IMG/VR virus record: IMGVR_UViG_3300042520_000681
Location: 4,095 to 68,094 of that record
Direction: 5' to 3' (one strand)
DNA from: a virus
DNA length: 64,000 nt
A program made the position numbers and the translations under genes. Position 1 is the stretch's first letter. The number at the start of each line of letters is the position of its first letter. This document shows, one piece after another, positions 4,571 to 63,666 of the stretch. Below the pieces are notes generated by a model. It was not told the DNA's origin. It did not search any database and was given only the letters and a program-made list of their open reading frames with translations.

Positions 4571-5302
4571 TTACTCTGCAATAGCTTTGTAAGCTACGAT
4601 TGTTTTCTTGATAGCATCCATGCCATCGAAAAGGAATAGTGATGAAGTGTTGTCGCTCATCTTGAAGAAGTCTTTAGCCTGCGCTGGAACACGCTCGTCT
4701 TTGGCCCACTTGTGAGATTCAAGAAACTCTTCTGGCGTGTAACCGAGCTTCATCAACTCTTGGAAGAGTGCCTGATGATTCTCTCCGTTGAATTTAGATG
4801 CCACTTCTTTCGCTTTAGGAGCCTCTGTAGGCTTCTTTTCCTGCGGCTTGGCTGGCTCTGCCTTCTGGACGGGCTTCGGAGATTCTACGGGCTTCTGAGC
4901 TGGAGCGTTCCGACCCATTGCCGCTTCCCCATCGTCGTCGTCAGGGCAAACCATAGTGACAGCTTGCAACGCATAACGGCGAGCATACGAAATCAGCGAA
5001 CCGATTCCTTGCGGATCGTCTTTCGCTGGCTTCATGTATGTCCGGCTCTTGATCCATTGTCCCGAGCCGTGCATCAACATGGTTTCGACATAGTATCCAG
5101 ACTCGTCGTGAGACGGAAGCTGGACAACACTCAAGCCATGCTTTGACAGGATAGGACGGGTAGCTTCCCATACTGCCGCGAGAGAAGCGTAGTTTGATTT
5201 GAAGAACGGATTCGCGGAATCCTTGTGGACTGTGCCAACCTCCGCTTGCGCCTTTGCTAAAGCGGCTGCGAGGTCGCCGATGTTTTCAGATTGTGTGTTC
5301 AT
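4571..5302 (-). CDS. erf: ERF-family single-strand annealing recombinase
   Basis: NPFFKSNYASL, H.SGQWI, DPQGIGSLISYARRYAL, DDDG motifs. Confidence 0.92.
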   Translation of the reverse strand: MNTQSENIGDLAAALAKAQAEVGTVHKDSANPFFKSNYASLAAVWEATRPILSKHGLSVVQLPSHDESGYYVETMLMHGSGQWIKSRTYMKPAKDDPQGIGSLISYARRYALQAVTMVCPDDDDGEAAMGRNAPAQKPVESPKPVQKAEPAKPQEKKPTEAPKAKEVASKFNGENHQALFQELMKLGYTPEEFLESHKWAKDERVPAQAKDFFKMSDNTSSLFLFDGMDAIKKTIVAYKAIAE

Positions 5303-5797: not shown

Positions 5798-6556
5798 TTA
5801 TTTCTTTGGGGGTTGATAGCCTGTGCTGAACTGCCAATACTTGCAGATGTGGGTGAAGGCTTCGTAGTTTTCGTTAAGAGTTTTCTCGTCATACCAAGCC
5901 TCACCGATACGCCCCGGCTCGGTTGTCGAGATGTAAAGGTTGACTCCTCTTACTGCGCCAGCGACCTTGGCGTATGCGGCGATCTGCATTGGCTCCTTTG
6001 CCCAAGGCTTGATGTCAAAGTCTGGCTTGGTCTTGCGGCTCTTGTAATCCAAGATATGCAACACACCATCCTTCATAATAAGTGCGTCTGTTGTGCCAGC
6101 GTAGCCAACTTCGGGAGACACTAAACGCAGTTCGTGCTGTAGGAAGGTGACATTATTCTTCTCCACCCACTTCTTGACTGGCTCGACATAGCACTCCATT
6201 ACGGGATCGTATGGCTCGCCTTGGAAGTGGTTCTCTAGTGCCTTGTGGATGTTCGTTCCGAGGTCTGCTGCATCGTCAACCTGCTTGAATGCGTCTTGCA
6301 TAATGCGGGAACAATACTCTTCGTCGCTCTCGTCTTGCTGGCGAGGAAGGGTAAGACTTGCCATCAGAACCTGCTGTTGTTTCCAACGGTCAAGCTCCGG
6401 TGATGCGAGGCACTTGAAGATTGTTGTGACTGACGGCAGTAAACCGAGTCCTTTTGCGTCTCGCAATGTTGTCTTGCGGTATCCGCCTTTAGTTTTATTT
6501 GGGACTTCAAAGACTGCTTTGCCTTTTAGGTCGTAGTAGTGTCCTGATTCGTTCAT
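5798..6556 (-). CDS. PD-(D/E)XK exonuclease (recombination partner of ERF)
   Basis: LPSVTTI, GT.IH, E, YAGTTD, ILDYKS, QIAAY motifs. Confidence 0.88.
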   Translation of the reverse strand: MNESGHYYDLKGKAVFEVPNKTKGGYRKTTLRDAKGLGLLPSVTTIFKCLASPELDRWKQQQVLMASLTLPRQQDESDEEYCSRIMQDAFKQVDDAADLGTNIHKALENHFQGEPYDPVMECYVEPVKKWVEKNNVTFLQHELRLVSPEVGYAGTTDALIMKDGVLHILDYKSRKTKPDFDIKPWAKEPMQIAAYAKVAGAVRGVNLYISTTEPGRIGEAWYDEKTLNENYEAFTHICKYWQFSTGYQPPKK

Positions 6557-6598
6557 GTGTGTGTTTCTTTTTTTTGTTATTTACAAAATTTAATGGAA

Positions 6599-9235: not shown

Positions 9236-9282
9236 AGAATTTGAATGTTGACACAACATGAAGTGGCATTCAAGTTGGATGT

Positions 9283-9687
9283 ATGAACACATACGAAACA
9301 TCCTGCATAATGTCTATGCCGGAATCCGAAGAAGGCTGGAAATATAATGTCCGTCCAGCCGATGAGCCAGAACTAGCCAGCCCCGGACTGCTGACTATTT
9401 GCGAGATGGATTCTTTACGATCCGAGCTACGCAACGAAAGGTATAAGCGAATGCTCGCAGAAGGTGAGGTTGCACGAATGAAGTTTGAACAGGCATGGAC
9501 TCCACACCAATCGTTTCTTGGGTTCCCGCTCCGCTCATACGACTCAAGCGATGACGACTGCAAGCGCACTAGCTATGAGGTCAAAATTGATGGCGTCTGG
9601 TGCGAGGTTGTCACTTCTGGACTGAATTTCGATACACAAGAAGCAGTCGCCACGATCTGTCAAATCCTAAAGAATAAAGCGAAATGA
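9283..9687 (+). CDS. hypothetical protein
   Basis: first gene of a rightward operon; TTGACA at 9248. Confidence 0.6.
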   Translation: MNTYETSCIMSMPESEEGWKYNVRPADEPELASPGLLTICEMDSLRSELRNERYKRMLAEGEVARMKFEQAWTPHQSFLGFPLRSYDSSDDDCKRTSYEVKIDGVWCEVVTSGLNFDTQEAVATICQILKNKAK

Positions 9688-9956
9688 AAACCGCAAGCGA
9701 TCCAGTAATAAAATTACTGGCTGGGATGATGCTTTATGCGGTGGATGATGTTCGCAAGAAAGTTCCCTCTGCATGCCCAAGGAACGAGAGAGAAGAAGCG
9801 AAGCGAACTGCAAGAGATTTTTTCAACACAAAATTCTACGAGGCGTGTTGCGATATGCTGAACATCCCAGCAGACCGAGCCAGAACCAAGGTTCTCTCGG
9901 AAGAATCAACCGAGGAATGGAAGCCAAACGATGAACTGCCCGAACTGCCAATCTAA
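9684..9956 (+). CDS. hypothetical protein
   Basis: ATGA-coupled ORF. Confidence 0.6.
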   Translation: MKTASDPVIKLLAGMMLYAVDDVRKKVPSACPRNEREEAKRTARDFFNTKFYEACCDMLNIPADRARTKVLSEESTEEWKPNDELPELPI

Positions 9957-10215
9957 AACTAAAGTCATCGACTCTCGCATTGCTGGAGACAGGACCGTTG
10001 TTTCATCCGAGCATGAATATAGCGGCCCCAAGATTCGTCGCAGGCACAAATGCGACAAGTGCAACACTAGATTTTCCACGATAGAAATTATCTGTGAAAT
10101 CATCCCCCCGAAATACAATCGAAATCGAAGGCTCGATTGGAAAGAACAAAGAACAAAAGCAACACCCGAACCATCCGACTGGTTGGAACGGATCAACCAG
10201 AAACTAAAAGAATGA
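9931..10215 (+). CDS. NrdR-N-like zinc-ribbon protein
   Basis: MNCPNC...TKVIDSR...RRRHKCDKCNTRFSTIE; no ATP cone. Confidence 0.8.
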   Translation: MNCPNCQSKTKVIDSRIAGDRTVVSSEHEYSGPKIRRRHKCDKCNTRFSTIEIICEIIPPKYNRNRRLDWKEQRTKATPEPSDWLERINQKLKE

Positions 10216-10559
10216 AATACGAAGAGTTCGTTACAGCCCTTGTTAAAGACGGGGATAAGATTAAATCAGAACTAACAGGCAACGAGTGCCACACAATCCA
10301 CATGATTATGGGAATCTGCGGTGAGGCAGGGGAGCTACTGGATGCGGTGAAAAAAGCAGTCATCTACCGCAAGCCGCTTGACCGAGTTAATGTCATTGAA
10401 GAACTAGGTGACATTGAGTTTTACCTTGAAGGATTCCGTCAGTCAGTTGGAATCTCGCGTGATGAGACAATTAAAGAGAACATGGACAAACTTTCCAAAA
10501 GGTATTCCAAAATCCAATACACAGATGAAGACGCACAAACCCGCGCCGATAAGCCCTGA
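10212..10559 (+). CDS. MazG-like nucleotide pyrophosphohydrolase
   Basis: GICGEAGELLDAVKK, EELGDIEFY, N..KL..RY motifs. Confidence 0.88.
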   Translation: MKYEEFVTALVKDGDKIKSELTGNECHTIHMIMGICGEAGELLDAVKKAVIYRKPLDRVNVIEELGDIEFYLEGFRQSVGISRDETIKENMDKLSKRYSKIQYTDEDAQTRADKP

Positions 10560-10616
10560 TACGGTCCTATTGGTATCAGTTGTTTTTATTTGCGTTATTT
10601 ATAAAGTTTTCTTGGA

Positions 10617-10832
10617 ATGATTCTACATCCGTTTATTGGCTTGGATGATTCTGGAAAACTACGAATACATATATCGCCGTTCAAACTTTACCCATTGAGT
10701 CCAATGCACAAGCGCAAGGATGACTTCCCTTCTGGATGCGATGGTATTGTTGAACAAGACATTGAAGAAGTATTACAGAAGATGAAGGATTACTTTCAAG
10801 AACATGAAGCGAGGAAGCCTAAAAAGAAATAA
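10617..10832 (+). CDS. hypothetical protein
   Basis: 71-aa coupled ORF. Confidence 0.5.
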   Translation: MILHPFIGLDDSGKLRIHISPFKLYPLSPMHKRKDDFPSGCDGIVEQDIEEVLQKMKDYFQEHEARKPKKK

Positions 10833-11079
10833 GCCGCTCAACAAAATCTCCGACAGGCAGAGAGGTAAGCTAAAGGAGTATTCTGTTGTAAGGAAAGAAT
10901 ATATGATGCTTCATCCGTTCTGCGAAGTCTGCGGACAACCAGCAACAGACATACATCACAAGGCAAAGCGAGGAGCCAACCTGTGCAACAAGGATACCTT
11001 CTTGGCGATTTGCCGTATATGTCATACAAAAGCGCACGACAATCCAGCTTGGGCAAAAGAAAATGGCTACACATCCTAA
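10804..11079 (+). CDS. HNH endonuclease
   Basis: CEVC...DIHH...CRICH...H. Confidence 0.85.
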   Translation: MKRGSLKRNKPLNKISDRQRGKLKEYSVVRKEYMMLHPFCEVCGQPATDIHHKAKRGANLCNKDTFLAICRICHTKAHDNPAWAKENGYTS

Positions 11080-11524
11080 AACAATATTCGCAATAGACCC
11101 CGGCCCAGAGAAGTCAGCATTCGTTCAATGGAACGGAAAGGTTATCGACCACGGACACATCGACAACTTTGATATGCGGCAACTCTTGATCGGAAGGGAG
11201 TATGACATCGTAGCCTGCGAGATGGTAGCCAGCTACGGCATGGCGGTAGGAGCCAGCGTGTTTGATACTTGCCGATGGGTAGGTAGATTCACTGAGGTTG
11301 CTAGGACGGATACAATCCTGTGCTACAGGAAGGACATCAAGATGTTCCTATGCAAAACGATGAGGTCTAAAGATAAAGACATCCGACAAGCATTACTGAA
11401 CCTAGTAGGACAACAAGGGACTAAAGATAATCAAGGTCCAACCTACGGATTAAAATCTCACACTTGGTCAGCACTAGCCGTTGCGGTGTATGCAGAAAAC
11501 AAATTGACTACGCTAAAGCATTAG
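11063..11524 (+). CDS. RuvC-like Holliday junction resolvase
   Basis: IFAIDPG, VACE, K..D, W.ALAVA RNase-H-fold motifs. Confidence 0.75.
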   Translation: MATHPKTIFAIDPGPEKSAFVQWNGKVIDHGHIDNFDMRQLLIGREYDIVACEMVASYGMAVGASVFDTCRWVGRFTEVARTDTILCYRKDIKMFLCKTMRSKDKDIRQALLNLVGQQGTKDNQGPTYGLKSHTWSALAVAVYAENKLTTLKH

Positions 11525-11531
11525 TTAATGT
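11504..11531 (+). promoter_or_regulatory. promoter of candidate sRNA
   Basis: TTGACT-N16-TAATGT with no downstream + strand ORF. Confidence 0.6.
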
Positions 11532-11534
11532 TGT

Positions 11535-11612
11535 CTCACCCCTCGTTCAGCGTGGGTGTTTCATGTGTGTTCATAGGTGAAGAGGGGGGCGCAAGCTCCC
11601 CTCTTCTATTTT
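11535..11612 (+). ncRNA. candidate trans-acting sRNA with anti-AUG loop
   Basis: TCACC/GGTGA stem enclosing TGTTTCATGTGTGTTCATA, then a GCAA-loop terminator AAGAGGGG/CCCCTCTT plus T tract. Confidence 0.55.
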
Positions 11613-11866
11613 AGTCTGTAGAAAATAATTTGACGGACTGAATTATCGCTTACAACCGAGAATATCTTTTTATCAATTTTTAACTTCTTCATTCTATGTG
11701 TCGCTCCACCTATCGACAGCTTGAGGTTCTCAGCTATTTCATATACATCAATCCACCCCTTATCCCTTAATTCTTCCTTTTCGTATGTTTTGTTTTGATT
11801 GAAAAACTCCTGCCAAGCATTCTTTATATTGGCAACATCCACGGGTTGTTTCGTTTTCTTTCGCAT
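11606..11866 (-). CDS. putative HTH protein
   Basis: GWIDVYEIAENLKLSIGGATHRMKKL helix-turn-helix pattern. Confidence 0.5.
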   Translation of the reverse strand: MRKKTKQPVDVANIKNAWQEFFNQNKTYEKEELRDKGWIDVYEIAENLKLSIGGATHRMKKLKIDKKIFSVVSDNSVRQIIFYRLK

Positions 11867-12588
11867 AGGTTTACTGTTATTTGTGTGTCTGAATAATATC
11901 CGTAGCCAAACCCTTGGCTCCAAGAAAGTGTCTGTCTTTTCGTCTTAGCGTAGTCCGCATCAAATCGCATAAGCATTCCAACGGAATATCCGGCAGCTCC
12001 GTTAAGCGTTCTAGCCTGCTCTATACCGACTCGGTGGATGTGTCCCATTACACAGGAGCCAAATGTTTCAGCATGATCTCGGATAGCCGCAACATTAAAC
12101 ATGAAGCCGTGGATGAATCTTGTTCCTCCAATGATAGGATGGGATTGCATATCGTATGAATACAGCCTCGCCTTGAGGTTCTTTGCCGTCTTCTCGATCT
12201 CTTGTATGACAAGTGTGGATGCATGGGCAGCTAGAGCATTCGGCGAGCTAGCGAGGCGAAACAAGCGATCTTCGTGGTTTCCGTAAAGGATGTGGTTAGG
12301 TCTAAACTCCTGAAGGAAGTCAACACCAGCCGCCAAATCTTCAGCTACAGATGCAGCCCTGTCCGAAGCATTAGGATCATTCATCGCGCCAGAGCGAGCT
12401 GCTGCCATATCCACGAAGTCTCCAAGGTGAATCGTTGTATCAGGCTTGAACCTGTCCTTAAAAGCAAGGACAGCATCCCTAGCCTCTGGGTCAATGTGAT
12501 CTCCGTGGGAACAGCTAACCGCCATCCACTTCTTCCATTTCTTTGTGATGTTGAACGGCTGGAACCGCTCGCTAGTCTTAGCTTTCAT
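11824..12588 (-). CDS. calcineurin-like metallophosphoesterase
   Basis: CSHG, LGDFVD, GNHE, HG, GHIHR motifs (first Asp replaced by Cys). Confidence 0.85.
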   Translation of the reverse strand: MKAKTSERFQPFNITKKWKKWMAVSCSHGDHIDPEARDAVLAFKDRFKPDTTIHLGDFVDMAAARSGAMNDPNASDRAASVAEDLAAGVDFLQEFRPNHILYGNHEDRLFRLASSPNALAAHASTLVIQEIEKTAKNLKARLYSYDMQSHPIIGGTRFIHGFMFNVAAIRDHAETFGSCVMGHIHRVGIEQARTLNGAAGYSVGMLMRFDADYAKTKRQTLSWSQGFGYGYYSDTQITVNLCERKRNNPWMLPI

Positions 12589-12790
12589 TTGGTATCTTTG
12601 GGCATTCAAAGTCGTCTTGGCTGAAGACTGGTTTGCCAGTCTCGTCCAAGTGCGGGAAGTGACGCAGGCAGCTATAGGCTCGGTCTGAAATCTCAGTCAC
12701 GGTCTTTGGCCTAGTAGTGTGATGGAGTAGATCGCGGAGGAATTTACGAGTCTTGTATAGCGAATACTGCTGTTCGTAGCGTAGGCTCAT
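12578..12790 (-). CDS. small protein, BPSL0761-like
   Basis: FL.DL...A..CLRHFP motif. Confidence 0.55.
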   Translation of the reverse strand: MSLRYEQQYSLYKTRKFLRDLLHHTTRPKTVTEISDRAYSCLRHFPHLDETGKPVFSQDDFECPKIPNES

Positions 12791-46910: not shown

Positions 46911-48680
<1,770 letters not shown>

Positions 48681-58952: not shown

Positions 58953-58977
58953 AACATAATAAATAAAGTTATAACAC

Positions 58978-60099
58978 ATGAAACATACATATCATATATT
59001 GGGGCTTCCACATACTGTTACATCTAAAGAGTTTAACGCTTGTGCATATACGCAAAAAGTCGTTAAGTTCGGAAAGATGATGACGGAGCGTGGACATGAA
59101 GTCATCCATTACGGACACGAAGATTCAGACTTGATCTGCACAGAGCATGTATCCGTCCTAACGAACGACGACTTCAAGAAGAGCTACGGATCGCACGACT
59201 GGCGCAAGACATTCTTCAAGTTCAATACGCAAGACCACGCATACCAGACATTCTACCGCAATGCGATTAAGGCTATCGGTCAGCGCAAGAAGAAGAATGA
59301 CTTTATCCTTCCATTCTGGGGCAGCGGAGTCAGGCCGATTTGTGACGCGCATAACGACATGATTGTTGTAGAGCCGGGAATCGGATATGCAGGAGGACAC
59401 TGGGCAAGATGGAAGGTATGGGAGAGTTACGCGATTTATCATGCCTATTGTGGCTTGAAGAATGTTGGTCAGTGCAATCAAGATTGGTATGATGTTGTAA
59501 TTCCTAATTATTTCGATGAAGAAGACTTTGAATTTAACGATAAGAAAGAAGATTACTTTTTGTATCTTGGCAGGGTTTATTCAGGCAAAGGCGTTGATGT
59601 TGCGATTCAAGCCACGGAAAAAGCAGGAGTTAAGCTTGTCATTGCAGGACAGAAAGAAGAAGGCTATAAATTGCCAGCGCATGTTGAATATGTCGGATAT
59701 GCCGACGTGGTAAAGCGCAAGAAATTGATGGCAAATGCGAAGGCTAGTTTTTTACCTTCCATGTATGTTGAGCCATTTGGAGGCGTCCAGATTGAGAACT
59801 TGCTTTGTGGAACTCCCACGATAACGACAGACTGGGGTAGCTTTGCAGAAAATAATTTGCATGGGATTACAGGCTATCGTTGCCGGACTATGGGTGACTT
59901 CGTAGATGCTATCAAAAGAATTGATGAGATCGACCCAGCGGATTGCCGTAAGTTCGGAGAGAACTTCACGCTTGAAAAGGTAGCCCCGATGTATGAGAAG
60001 TATTTCAACGATGTCATGGATGTTTATACAGGCAAGGGTTGGTATGCAGATGGAAATGACATTGACGCAATGACACGATTCTACCCCAGCATTTACTAA
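58978..60099 (+). CDS. GT4-family glycosyltransferase
   Basis: LYLGR...KG, AG, PS.YVEPFG.V.IE...CGTP.I.T..G. Confidence 0.88.
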   Translation: MKHTYHILGLPHTVTSKEFNACAYTQKVVKFGKMMTERGHEVIHYGHEDSDLICTEHVSVLTNDDFKKSYGSHDWRKTFFKFNTQDHAYQTFYRNAIKAIGQRKKKNDFILPFWGSGVRPICDAHNDMIVVEPGIGYAGGHWARWKVWESYAIYHAYCGLKNVGQCNQDWYDVVIPNYFDEEDFEFNDKKEDYFLYLGRVYSGKGVDVAIQATEKAGVKLVIAGQKEEGYKLPAHVEYVGYADVVKRKKLMANAKASFLPSMYVEPFGGVQIENLLCGTPTITTDWGSFAENNLHGITGYRCRTMGDFVDAIKRIDEIDPADCRKFGENFTLEKVAPMYEKYFNDVMDVYTGKGWYADGNDIDAMTRFYPSIY

Positions 60100-60101
60100 T
60101 C

Positions 60102-60677
60102 ATGCCATTTTCAGCAGATGTATTTAATGGACTAATTGAAAGTCACATTAAAAAAATAAATCCGCAATCAATCTTGGATGTTGGAGCTGGAGCCGGAAAG
60201 TATGGAAAGATTCTCAAGTCAATCTCTACAGAATTCAAGGTTGATGCGGTTGAGCCAACATTGCAGTATCTAGTTGACTACAAGTTGAATGATATTTATA
60301 ATAAGGTTCATTGCGATACAATCCAAGACTTTGCAAAGCGCAATTCAAGGAACAGATATAATGCGGTAATATTCGGAGATGTTCTTGAACACTTTTTTAG
60401 ATCAGAAGCTATAGATTACATTGATTACTTTTTGTATCGCAGTGATTGGGTATTTGTATTGTGGCCCACGTTCATGCCGCAGGATGATGCTATGGACAAC
60501 TCATACGAAATTCACAAATCAAACTTCAACCTAATTGATTTGGCTGCAAAGTTTGACATACACCATTATGAAAAAAGGTTTGGATGGTATCATTGGAACG
60601 ATCCGCAGTTTACGCATTGCGAATACAACTACTGTCTAATGAAAGGATATGTCACACGCAGGCATTTAGGATTATGA
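60102..60677 (+). CDS. SAM-dependent methyltransferase
   Basis: ILDVGAGAGKYG, GDVLEH. Confidence 0.85.
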   Translation: MPFSADVFNGLIESHIKKINPQSILDVGAGAGKYGKILKSISTEFKVDAVEPTLQYLVDYKLNDIYNKVHCDTIQDFAKRNSRNRYNAVIFGDVLEHFFRSEAIDYIDYFLYRSDWVFVLWPTFMPQDDAMDNSYEIHKSNFNLIDLAAKFDIHHYEKRFGWYHWNDPQFTHCEYNYCLMKGYVTRRHLGL

Positions 60678-63592: not shown

Positions 63593-63666
63593 GCCCTCGT
63601 AGCTCAATAGGACAGAGCGACAGATTTCTAATCTGTAGGTTGCTGGTTCGATCCCAGCCGAGGGTA
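63593..63666 (+). tRNA. tRNA-Arg(TCT)
   Basis: acceptor GCCCTCG/CGAGGGT, D arm GCTC..GAGC, anticodon arm ACAGA-TTTCTAA-TCTGT, T arm GCTGG-TTCGATC-CCAGC; CCA not encoded. Confidence 0.95.

Follow-up and report, generated by a model that had tools for sequence, protein, structure and literature searches.

The window analyzed in this study is a stretch of 64,000 nucleotides, bases 4095-68094 of the virus record IMGVR_UViG_3300042520_000681 (IMG/VR; 68,094 bp, judged 99% complete), and all positions below refer to it unless a locus is named. Its segment 11537-11613, at the end of a plus-strand operon, is a real, conserved, clade-specific structured element of RNA type on the plus strand, without an Rfam family. 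We describe the anatomy, conservation, covariation and strand of this element, its complementarity to the start of the first gene of the same operon, and the genome-wide rank of this complementarity. An earlier note, made from the letters of the window, had proposed that a phage small RNA encoded here is antisense to the start codons of many phage genes. This antisense idea is partly supported by the present analysis and is sharpened to one specific partner. Judging from the sequence, we give about an even chance to the reading that the element is an antisense RNA, acting as a 3' untranslated region (UTR) and/or as a small RNA, which would occlude start sites formed by an AUG and a CA repeat.

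Structure and conservation of the element

The element consists of a 5' hairpin, a partly open GU-rich linker, and a strong terminator, with a fold energy of -34.6 kcal/mol (z = -4.2 compared to shuffled sequences). In the minimum-energy fold, CACCC at 11537-11541 is joined to GGGTG at 11554-11558, and the resulting hairpin 1 (11537-11558) has a CACCC/GGGUG stem and an inner CGU/GCG helix. The linker UUUCAUGUGUGUUCAUAGGU of about 20 nt (11559-11578) contains the conserved core UGUGUGUUCAU (11564-11574); the stretch TGTTTCATGTGTGTTCATA corresponds to 11556-11574. The mean unpaired probability of the core is 0.49 in the window and 0.48-0.68 across six genomes (G000, the genome of the window, to G005). 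The intrinsic terminator (11579-11613) is formed by GAAGAGGGGGGC-GCAA-GCTCCCCTCTTC at 11579-11606 and the following UAUUUUA; its 12-bp stem with eight GC pairs has the features of a Rho-independent terminator, and the GCAA-loop terminator described in the earlier note, followed by TATTTTA in the DNA, is thus confirmed. The minus strand has no U-tract at this place, therefore the terminator serves the plus strand. An antiterminator was considered and rejected, since the 5' arm of hairpin 1 can pair with the 5' arm of the terminator in the window, but such complementarity is missing in one of the sequence types defined below (type B).

Relatives of the locus were fetched using the protein encoded by the last gene of the operon, a RuvC-like Holliday junction resolvase, and comprised the best 80 of 352 viral-contig relatives and 80 metagenome loci. 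The motif was found downstream of the resolvase gene in 22 of the 80 viral loci, each with at least 78% protein identity, and in none of the 57 viral loci with a resolvase identity of 55% or below. The same architecture is present in 22 of the 24 distinct downstream sequences examined. Six sequence types were distinguished, from A, the type of the window, to F (D is L018, E is L019 and L020, F is L024), and the clade bearing the element consists of freshwater phages of about 68 kb. A covariance model identified exactly one copy per genome in the six genomes and no copy in 68 distant loci or in 100 further loci, 80 of them from prokaryotic genomes. An additional match of the model in G004 (L173 14902-14985, E = 0.06) is not a second copy: it consists of CAUGUGUGUUU beside a GC-rich hairpin, and the other strand of this segment is a gene start, ACACACATGGG. 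A 14-mer scan of viral contigs gave the element in three of the 80 loci listed, all on contigs already collected.

Rfam reported only a tRNA in the window at the gathering score and only chance-level matches at E up to 10 in 11450-11650. A blastn search of 10800-12700 gave no match among deposited phage genomes, and the best relative of the resolvase in a scan of 185,579 species genomes has 51% identity. As a search for the host, tblastn with the protein of 46911-48680, which has matches to tail-fibre families, yielded four weak partial matches.

The alignment produced by MAFFT left hairpin 1 out of register between the types, and model-based alignments were used for this reason. In the alignment of 15 distinct sequences fitted to the model, which favours the structure, 98.9% of the cells form standard pairs (100% in the terminator), and changes on both sides are observed in 16 of the 18 pairs, that is, in all six pairs of hairpin 1 and in ten of the 12 pairs of the terminator. 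None of 500 shuffles reached the observed pairing and covariation, and sliding the partners by 1-3 columns reduced the fraction of paired cells to 53-62%. Each of the six genomes folds alike on its own, and the close pair L019 and L020 differs by two double compensatory changes in hairpin 1. The earlier note had suggested a search of relatives for a conserved loop with covarying stems, and this is what was found. However, the stem TCACC/GGTGA described there is absent from the minimum-energy fold and, by eye, has no counterpart in types B to F, only the hairpin 11537-11558 being conserved.

Ahead of the terminator, a single block, TGTGT, is invariant in the 15 sequences, and at least 90% of them continue with GTTCA. 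A conserved open stretch flanked by covarying stems typically marks a seed region. The sequence UUCAU beside the GU repeat is retained in types A, B, C, and E, whereas type D retains the architecture with a pure GU repeat. The open stretch with two CAU triplets, to which the earlier note drew attention, is indeed the conserved part of the element, but not every type has these anti-AUG triplets: there is one CAU in each of types C, E, and F and none in type D.

In 20 of 21 loci, G·U pairs stabilize the plus-strand form of hairpin 1 over its minus-strand counterpart, with a mean difference of 3.6 kcal/mol, which argues against both an RNA of the minus strand and a pure DNA feature. This bears on the possibility that the segment is a minus-strand relic, the beginning of a first-gene copy that has decayed, or a functional mini-ORF, reading MNTHETPTLNEG followed by a stop codon; the earlier note had already named the remnant start of a decayed minus-strand gene as a potential refutation. 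The minus strand does resemble the first 22 nt of gene 9283, and, as no U-tract terminator exists here for the minus-strand operon, its transcription may continue through the segment. However, the mini-ORF is not conserved: the encoded peptides differ after MNT[HQ], the open reading frames (ORFs) starting with ATGAACACA are 12, 17, 19, and 20 codons long, and the ATG is missing in type D and replaced by TTG in type F. By eye, there is no promoter geometry on the minus strand, and the G·U-bearing helices favour the opposite one. Finally, had the segment been a neutral relic, its covarying hairpin and its invariant core would not have been kept in six types. We consider this explanation highly improbable, and it is the weakest of the rivals.

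The loops of hairpin 1 were compared in L004, L015, L018, L019, L020, L024, and L095. A U-rich motif, UUUUGGUU or UUUGGUUU, recurs in types B to F and in L095 and is not found in the corresponding region of the window (around 11542-11553). In type B, the complement of this motif, AACCA[A/G]AAG, also occurs within the first 35 nt of the first gene. The loop of L019 is antisense to AAAACCAUGAAA, found at another gene start.

Complementarity to gene starts

The best predicted target of the element is the plus-strand segment 9282-9303, TATGAACACATACGAAACATCC, which covers the 5' start of gene 9283-9687, the first in the operon. The reverse complement of the element matches this segment at 19 of 22 nt. 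The earlier note had listed the gene with a match of 10 nt plus a wobble, which is present but under-rates the real extent. The duplex energies were calculated with the 3' arm of hairpin 1 and the linker, and a DNA alignment scan was run beside the energy scan; a scan with the whole pre-terminator RNA was rejected as too noisy, as its G·U pairing yields long spurious duplexes, and was replaced. In G000, the duplex at the first-gene start has an energy of -32.2 kcal/mol (z = -5.6), compared to -27.5 for the runner-up window, and ranks first by both methods, among 17,014 windows by energy and 13,584 by alignment. The first-gene start is also ranked first by both methods in G005 (of 5,136 and 4,082, respectively), and in G001 it is first of 13,538 by alignment and third of 16,956 by energy.

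Past the shared ATGAACACAC, the extended match varies by type on both partners, with the type-specific extensions GAAACAC in type A, CGAACC(A)AAAG in type B, and TACT-GAA in type E. The cognate duplexes have a mean energy of -24.4 kcal/mol, compared to -20.7 for the non-cognate ones (permutation p = 2e-4 for 13 loci, which are related, so that the p-value overstates their independence).

Matches to other gene starts were observed as well, and all seven listed in the earlier note exist: the GT4 glycosyltransferase gene (12 nt), the exonuclease gene (11), erf (11), gene 9283 (10), dnaB (9), a QueF-like gene (9), and an LmbU-like gene (8). The erf gene (4571-5302, minus strand), which starts with ATGAACACACA at 5292-5302 and has a TTGACA 31 nt upstream, is the second-best conserved candidate target; it starts with ATGAACAC[A/G]CAATC in all six genomes. 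The exact 12-nt match ACACATGAAACA at the GT4 start (58974-58985, plus strand) and the exact 11-nt match ACACACATGAA at the exonuclease start (6552-6562, minus strand) are secondary candidates. The AUG-centred pairing register of the former is peculiar to type A, and the ACACAC upstream of the latter is missing in G001-G004. The context of an AUG and a CA repeat also occurs in other early genes, namely the GT4 gene, the LmbU-like gene, and a gene encoding 57 amino acids.

In support of the claim of the earlier note that this genome mostly lacks Shine-Dalgarno motifs, a Shine-Dalgarno-like 4-mer precedes only seven of 70 predicted genes, compared to 14% of random 17-mers. The 12 nt before the starts consist of A by 42%, and the leaders are CA-rich in early genes and AT-rich in late genes.

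How far the matches at gene starts exceed chance differs with the measure. The exact sequence ATGAACACA occurs 19 times in the six genomes; 13 of these sites are the starts of ORFs of at least 57 amino acids, and four are the element itself. With up to one mismatch, the pattern is more common than the reversed control in five of the six genomes; in the window, the 11-mer occurs three times at this threshold, compared to 1.2 expected, and ten of 100 shuffles reach three. Among the predicted ATG starts, nine of 60 carry an ATG-anchored exact match of at least 8 nt; such a match is present in three of 1052 cases for internal sense ATGs (Fisher p = 4e-10) and in 11 of 2233 for other ATGs. Sites complementary to the linker of each genome are enriched in the start windows of all six genomes, with p from 3.5e-11 to 0.006; in G000, 11 of 37 such matches lie within start windows, which constitute 1.8% of the sequence.

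The pairing energy, in contrast, does not separate the two classes: the mean is -13.2 kcal/mol for the 70 start windows and -13.3 for 700 internal ATG windows, and only 9283 is an outlier. Hence, the multi-target signal may be largely a matter of composition, a GU-rich linker facing CA-rich sites. The earlier note had named AUG-centring no greater than expected from composition as a potential refutation; exact matches do exceed chance at starts, and by duplex energy the classes do not differ. Accordingly, the multi-target silencer that it proposed is borne out as far as the enrichment at starts in all six genomes is concerned, and part of the pattern reflects the common AUG and CA-rich start context, not specific targeting.

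The RNA might also be directed chiefly at mRNAs of the host, or of superinfecting relatives, with CA-rich ribosome-binding regions, the matches within the phage being secondary. One study reportedly described a phage-encoded small RNA acting on host functions (bioRxiv 10.1101/2024.10.31.621285). The GU-repeat core of the element is conserved universally, type D included, as would be expected from such a role, and the R1 region of GcvB is likewise GU-rich, unstructured, and multi-target in the available part of PMC3879156. However, the strongest partner found is a phage gene, and no Rfam family, GcvB included, matches the element. We regard a mainly host-directed role as quite unlikely.

The operon and its candidate promoters

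The element lies at the end of a plus-strand operon of seven tightly packed ORFs (9283-11524). The product of the first (9283-9687, 134 amino acids) belongs to no known family: no Pfam or PHROG family was found for it, and the best score against the protein atlas, 0.82, is uninformative. It is followed by an ORF at 9684-9956, one encoding an NrdR-like zinc ribbon (9931-10215), one encoding MazG (about 10137-10559), another at 10617-10832, one encoding a DUF968-like protein (10804-11079), and the gene of the RuvC-like Holliday junction resolvase (11063-11524, stop codon 11522-11524; 153 amino acids, phrog_1770, E = 4e-15). No plus-strand terminator is predicted inside the operon; hence, the element would be the 3' end of the operon mRNA in any case.

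A separate transcript could arise from a sigma-70-like promoter candidate at 11504-11531 (plus strand), with TTGACT at 11504-11509, a 16-nt spacer, and TAATGT at 11526-11531. The hexamers are thus present as given in the earlier note. The note further described a self-contained unit between convergent genes, which needs correction: the candidate -35 box lies inside the resolvase gene 11063-11524 and the -10 box is just past its stop codon, so the unit is not wholly intergenic. Sites scoring at least 8/12, with the -10 box ending 3-7 nt before hairpin 1, were observed in five of the six genomes, at a background of 1.5-2.4% of genome positions. In type B, the site TTGACT-N16-TATATT scores 10/12, which is reached by 0.09% of positions. 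Types B and C have a strong form of the candidate element promoter, whereas the form in this genome is weak. TTGAC is retained although types D and E read the resolvase C-terminus in a different frame (sequences compared by eye). A perfect sigma-70 consensus, TTGACT-N17-TATAAT, is present in an intergenic region at 60274-60302, which indicates that this consensus is relevant to the phage.

The first gene is preceded by a promoter-like site TTGACA-N17-CAAGTT (9248-9276, plus strand). Its TTGACA (9248-9253) is followed by 29 nt up to the ATG, and a 17-nt spacer with a 6-nt discriminator puts the predicted transcription start on the A of ATG 9283; the mRNA is therefore probably leaderless. TTGACA was observed 29-32 nt ahead of the first-gene ATG in 20 of 20 loci listed, for which the search pattern required such a site. 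The segment 9248-9283 looks like two promoters that overlap back to back, with the -35 box of one complementary to the -10 region of its counterpart. In type F (L024 1840-1930), ATGAACACACGAAAC occurs on the opposite strand as a 12-codon ORF heading a divergent transcript, and the plus-strand first gene starts with ATGGCACACATACACATGAA.

Among the 24 sequencing runs listed, two are recorded as RNA (the freshwater metatranscriptomes X22 and X23, as assembled contigs). Short contigs of both cover parts of the coding sequence of the operon (9337-11310), and none lies on 11384-11700; as contigs cannot show RNA ends, this absence neither supports nor refutes the transcript. All three pieces of X22 and two of the five pieces of X23 are 95-99% alike, and carry-over of DNA is possible. 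We infer the transcription start sites, the leaderless status, the pairing in vivo, and the effect on translation from sequence.

On the other side of the element, a convergent minus-strand ORF of 105 amino acids (11606-11923) with a weak match to HTH_24 has its stop codon overlapping the 3' foot of the terminator. The C-terminus of its product reads F-Y-[RK]-x-K in types A and C-E, and ..YCKPK in type B (sequences compared by eye). This ORF, with a TTG start, shares 100 nt (11824-11923) with the end of a metallophosphoesterase ORF of 261 amino acids, and an internal ATG about 19 codons in is its likelier start. When 11610-11700 of the window is compared with L002 and L013, the sequence past the terminator diverges although these relatives are otherwise 97-98% identical, the terminator thus marking a boundary of a mosaic module. 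Elsewhere in the window, the tRNA gene reported by Rfam (71 bits) is located at 63593-63666.

A further explanation would act at the level of DNA, with ATGAACACA(C)A as an operator or a recombination site for a phage DNA-binding protein, involved in looping or in exchange at module boundaries. In support of it, the same 9-11-mer is located at the predicted transcription starts of two TTGACA promoters, those of 9283 and erf, and is present in inverted orientation 2.3 kb away, so that the copies flank the operon; a second half-site similar to GAAAC or TGAAC often follows 10-16 nt later (sequences compared by eye); an HTH-like gene adjoins the element; and close relatives diverge past the terminator, as at a module boundary. 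However, the motif is not palindromic, and the flanking helices covary in a strand-specific manner, which points to RNA. Further, a target G opposite an element U (ACACGCA in L010 and at the erf start of G003) is tolerated as a wobble, which fits RNA pairing. We consider a DNA-level site unlikely. A related candidate, an invertible segment, was rejected: inverted repeats do flank the operon, yet the 20 loci that include both of its ends share one orientation, and no joints were found in one DNA run, giving no sign of inversion.

Proposed mechanism and comparison with known systems

Several observations weigh against the antisense reading. On the side of the element, the core is only about half unpaired in the ensemble, hairpin 1 would have to open for full pairing with 9283, and the linker of type D contains no CAU. 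The element promoter of the window scores 8/12 and was not called by the consensus scan, and type F lacks a qualifying element promoter. The promoter-like site of the first gene has a poor -10 box and was not called either, which keeps the leaderless status of its mRNA at the level of a probable feature. On the side of the target, the first-gene start is outside the top six by energy in G003, G002, and G004 (of 12,512, 17,158, and 6,984 windows, respectively); by alignment, it is seventh of 9,982 in G003, and in types D and F it is no notable partner (663 of 13,701 in G002 and 248 of 5,562 in G004). In the comparison of cognate and non-cognate duplexes, the rows of types C, D, and F are led by a non-cognate duplex. 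In L008, L010, L086, L087, and L088, the first gene starts with ATGACCACG and the element has not changed accordingly, this start still leaving one wobble and one mismatch with the element; in L082, both partners have changed without compensation.

A rival explanation is a plain 3'-end module, consisting of a terminator and a protective hairpin, in which the linker is kept for another reason, for instance, as a binding or cleavage site for an RNA-binding protein or an RNase of the host, and the complementarity is a by-product of composition. The terminator is indeed strong and specific to the plus strand, start windows are the same as internal ATG windows by duplex energy, the architecture of type D is kept with a pure GU repeat and no CAU, and types D and F have no special match to the first gene. 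On the other hand, composition does not account for a 19/22 match that takes the top genome-wide rank in three genomes, four types (A, B, C, and E) preserve UUCAU next to the GU repeat, and the extended match changes on both partners between types. We therefore consider such a module rather unlikely as the full explanation. If this or another rival holds, the element is still a well-defined clade-specific covarying RNA motif without an Rfam family.

Based on these data, we suggest the following model for the antisense reading. The segment 11537-11613 would encode the structured 3' end of the early operon 9283-11524, and the candidate promoter overlapping the resolvase stop codon probably also yields the same RNA of about 75 nt separately. 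The linker would be antisense to the AUG and CA repeat that form the start context of early genes lacking Shine-Dalgarno sites, with the very 5' terminus of its operon's first gene, on a probably leaderless mRNA, as the best predicted partner and erf as the next one. Pairing would mask the start codon and the CA-rich enhancer and thereby block initiation by the ribosome, with feedback or a timed shut-off of early recombination and replication genes as the outcome. Action in trans as a small RNA is a tentative part of this model, and action in cis, with the 5' end of the operon mRNA pairing with its 3' end, seems still less probable. It is possible, if somewhat doubtful, that the element is a natural regulator dedicated to leaderless or Shine-Dalgarno-less translation, with a seed directed against a 5'-terminal AUG and its CA-repeat enhancer.

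In that case, after transcription has reached the end of the operon, this 3' end, or a small RNA released from it, would be a built-in timer or feedback device closing initiation at the operon's own 5' end and at erf, and the first RNA-based control of leaderless mRNAs to be described. A review of 2022, in its available part, enters the control of leaderless mRNAs by small RNAs as 'Unknown' (PMC9031893), and the regulation of translation of leaderless and Shine-Dalgarno-less mRNAs is largely open. The element offers a compact test case, with an RNA of 75 nt, a conserved core of 11 nt, and a partner of 22 nt at a probable 5'-terminal AUG, and six natural variants of both partners can be used for compensatory designs. 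It would add an autoregulatory operon 3' end to the few bacterial interactions between the 5' and 3' ends of an mRNA and would supply a phage example of enhancer silencing in the style of GcvB.

Some small RNAs derived from 3' UTRs, for instance, DapZ and MicL, have a promoter inside the upstream gene; they are host-encoded and Hfq-dependent. The element resembles them in that its candidate promoter overlaps the end of the upstream coding region and its RNA would share the terminator of the mRNA. Unlike the element in the proposed model, DapZ and MicL are not known to target the first gene of their own operon, and the promoter of the element is only a candidate. Among phages, sar of P22, OOP of lambda, and c4 of P1/P7 are small RNAs acting against the translation of phage regulatory genes. 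Cleavage of the controlled transcript itself releases the c4 RNA, which targets a Shine-Dalgarno region. The sar and OOP RNAs are encoded directly opposite their targets, whereas the best predicted target of the element is located 2.2 kb upstream on the same strand, which rules out a cis-encoded antisense RNA of this type. No Rfam family matched the element.

In icaR of Staphylococcus aureus and hbs of Bacillus subtilis, a 3' segment of the mRNA is complementary to its own initiation region and controls translation or decay, according to the available parts of PMC3868564 and PMC5737220. If it acts in cis, the element would resemble them, as a 3' end complementary to the start of the same transcript; the match has rank 1 by alignment in G000, G005, and G001. 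This likeness has a limit, as the match is weak in G003 (rank 7 of 9,982) and is not seen in G002 and G004, so that it is strong in three to four of the six types. Further, icaR and hbs are single-gene mRNAs with an anti-Shine-Dalgarno motif, whereas the partners considered here stand at the two ends of a seven-gene operon, 2.3 kb from each other, and the region matched is an AUG with a CA repeat and no Shine-Dalgarno site. As for the target side alone, leaderless translation gains strongly from CA repeats placed directly after the AUG (PMC9031893, in its available part, citing Martin-Farmer and Janssen 1999), and the putative targets begin with AUGAACACACA, that is, an AUG and a CA repeat at a probable 5' terminus.

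The closest functional parallel is GcvB, whose conserved unstructured GU-rich seed R1 pairs with CA-rich or ACA enhancers near ribosome-binding sites and blocks initiation on many mRNAs, as described in the available part of PMC3879156. It is a precedent for the design that the earlier note had thought to be without one. The element shares with GcvB a GU-rich open seed facing CA-rich start regions (PMC3879156, same part), and, as in GcvB, the seed is conserved and unstructured and the complementary CA-rich sites are concentrated at several gene starts. The two RNAs have no homology of sequence or structure, as no Rfam match was found at the gathering score or at E up to 10. In contrast to GcvB, the element is phage-encoded and located at the 3' end of an operon, its core adds the anti-AUG sequence UUCAU, and its best predicted partner is a probable leaderless 5' end and not a leader upstream of a Shine-Dalgarno site. 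Compared with the known systems, the element is new in that it comes from a phage, carries an anti-AUG extension, has a probably leaderless predicted target, and is located at the 3' end of the operon to which this target belongs.

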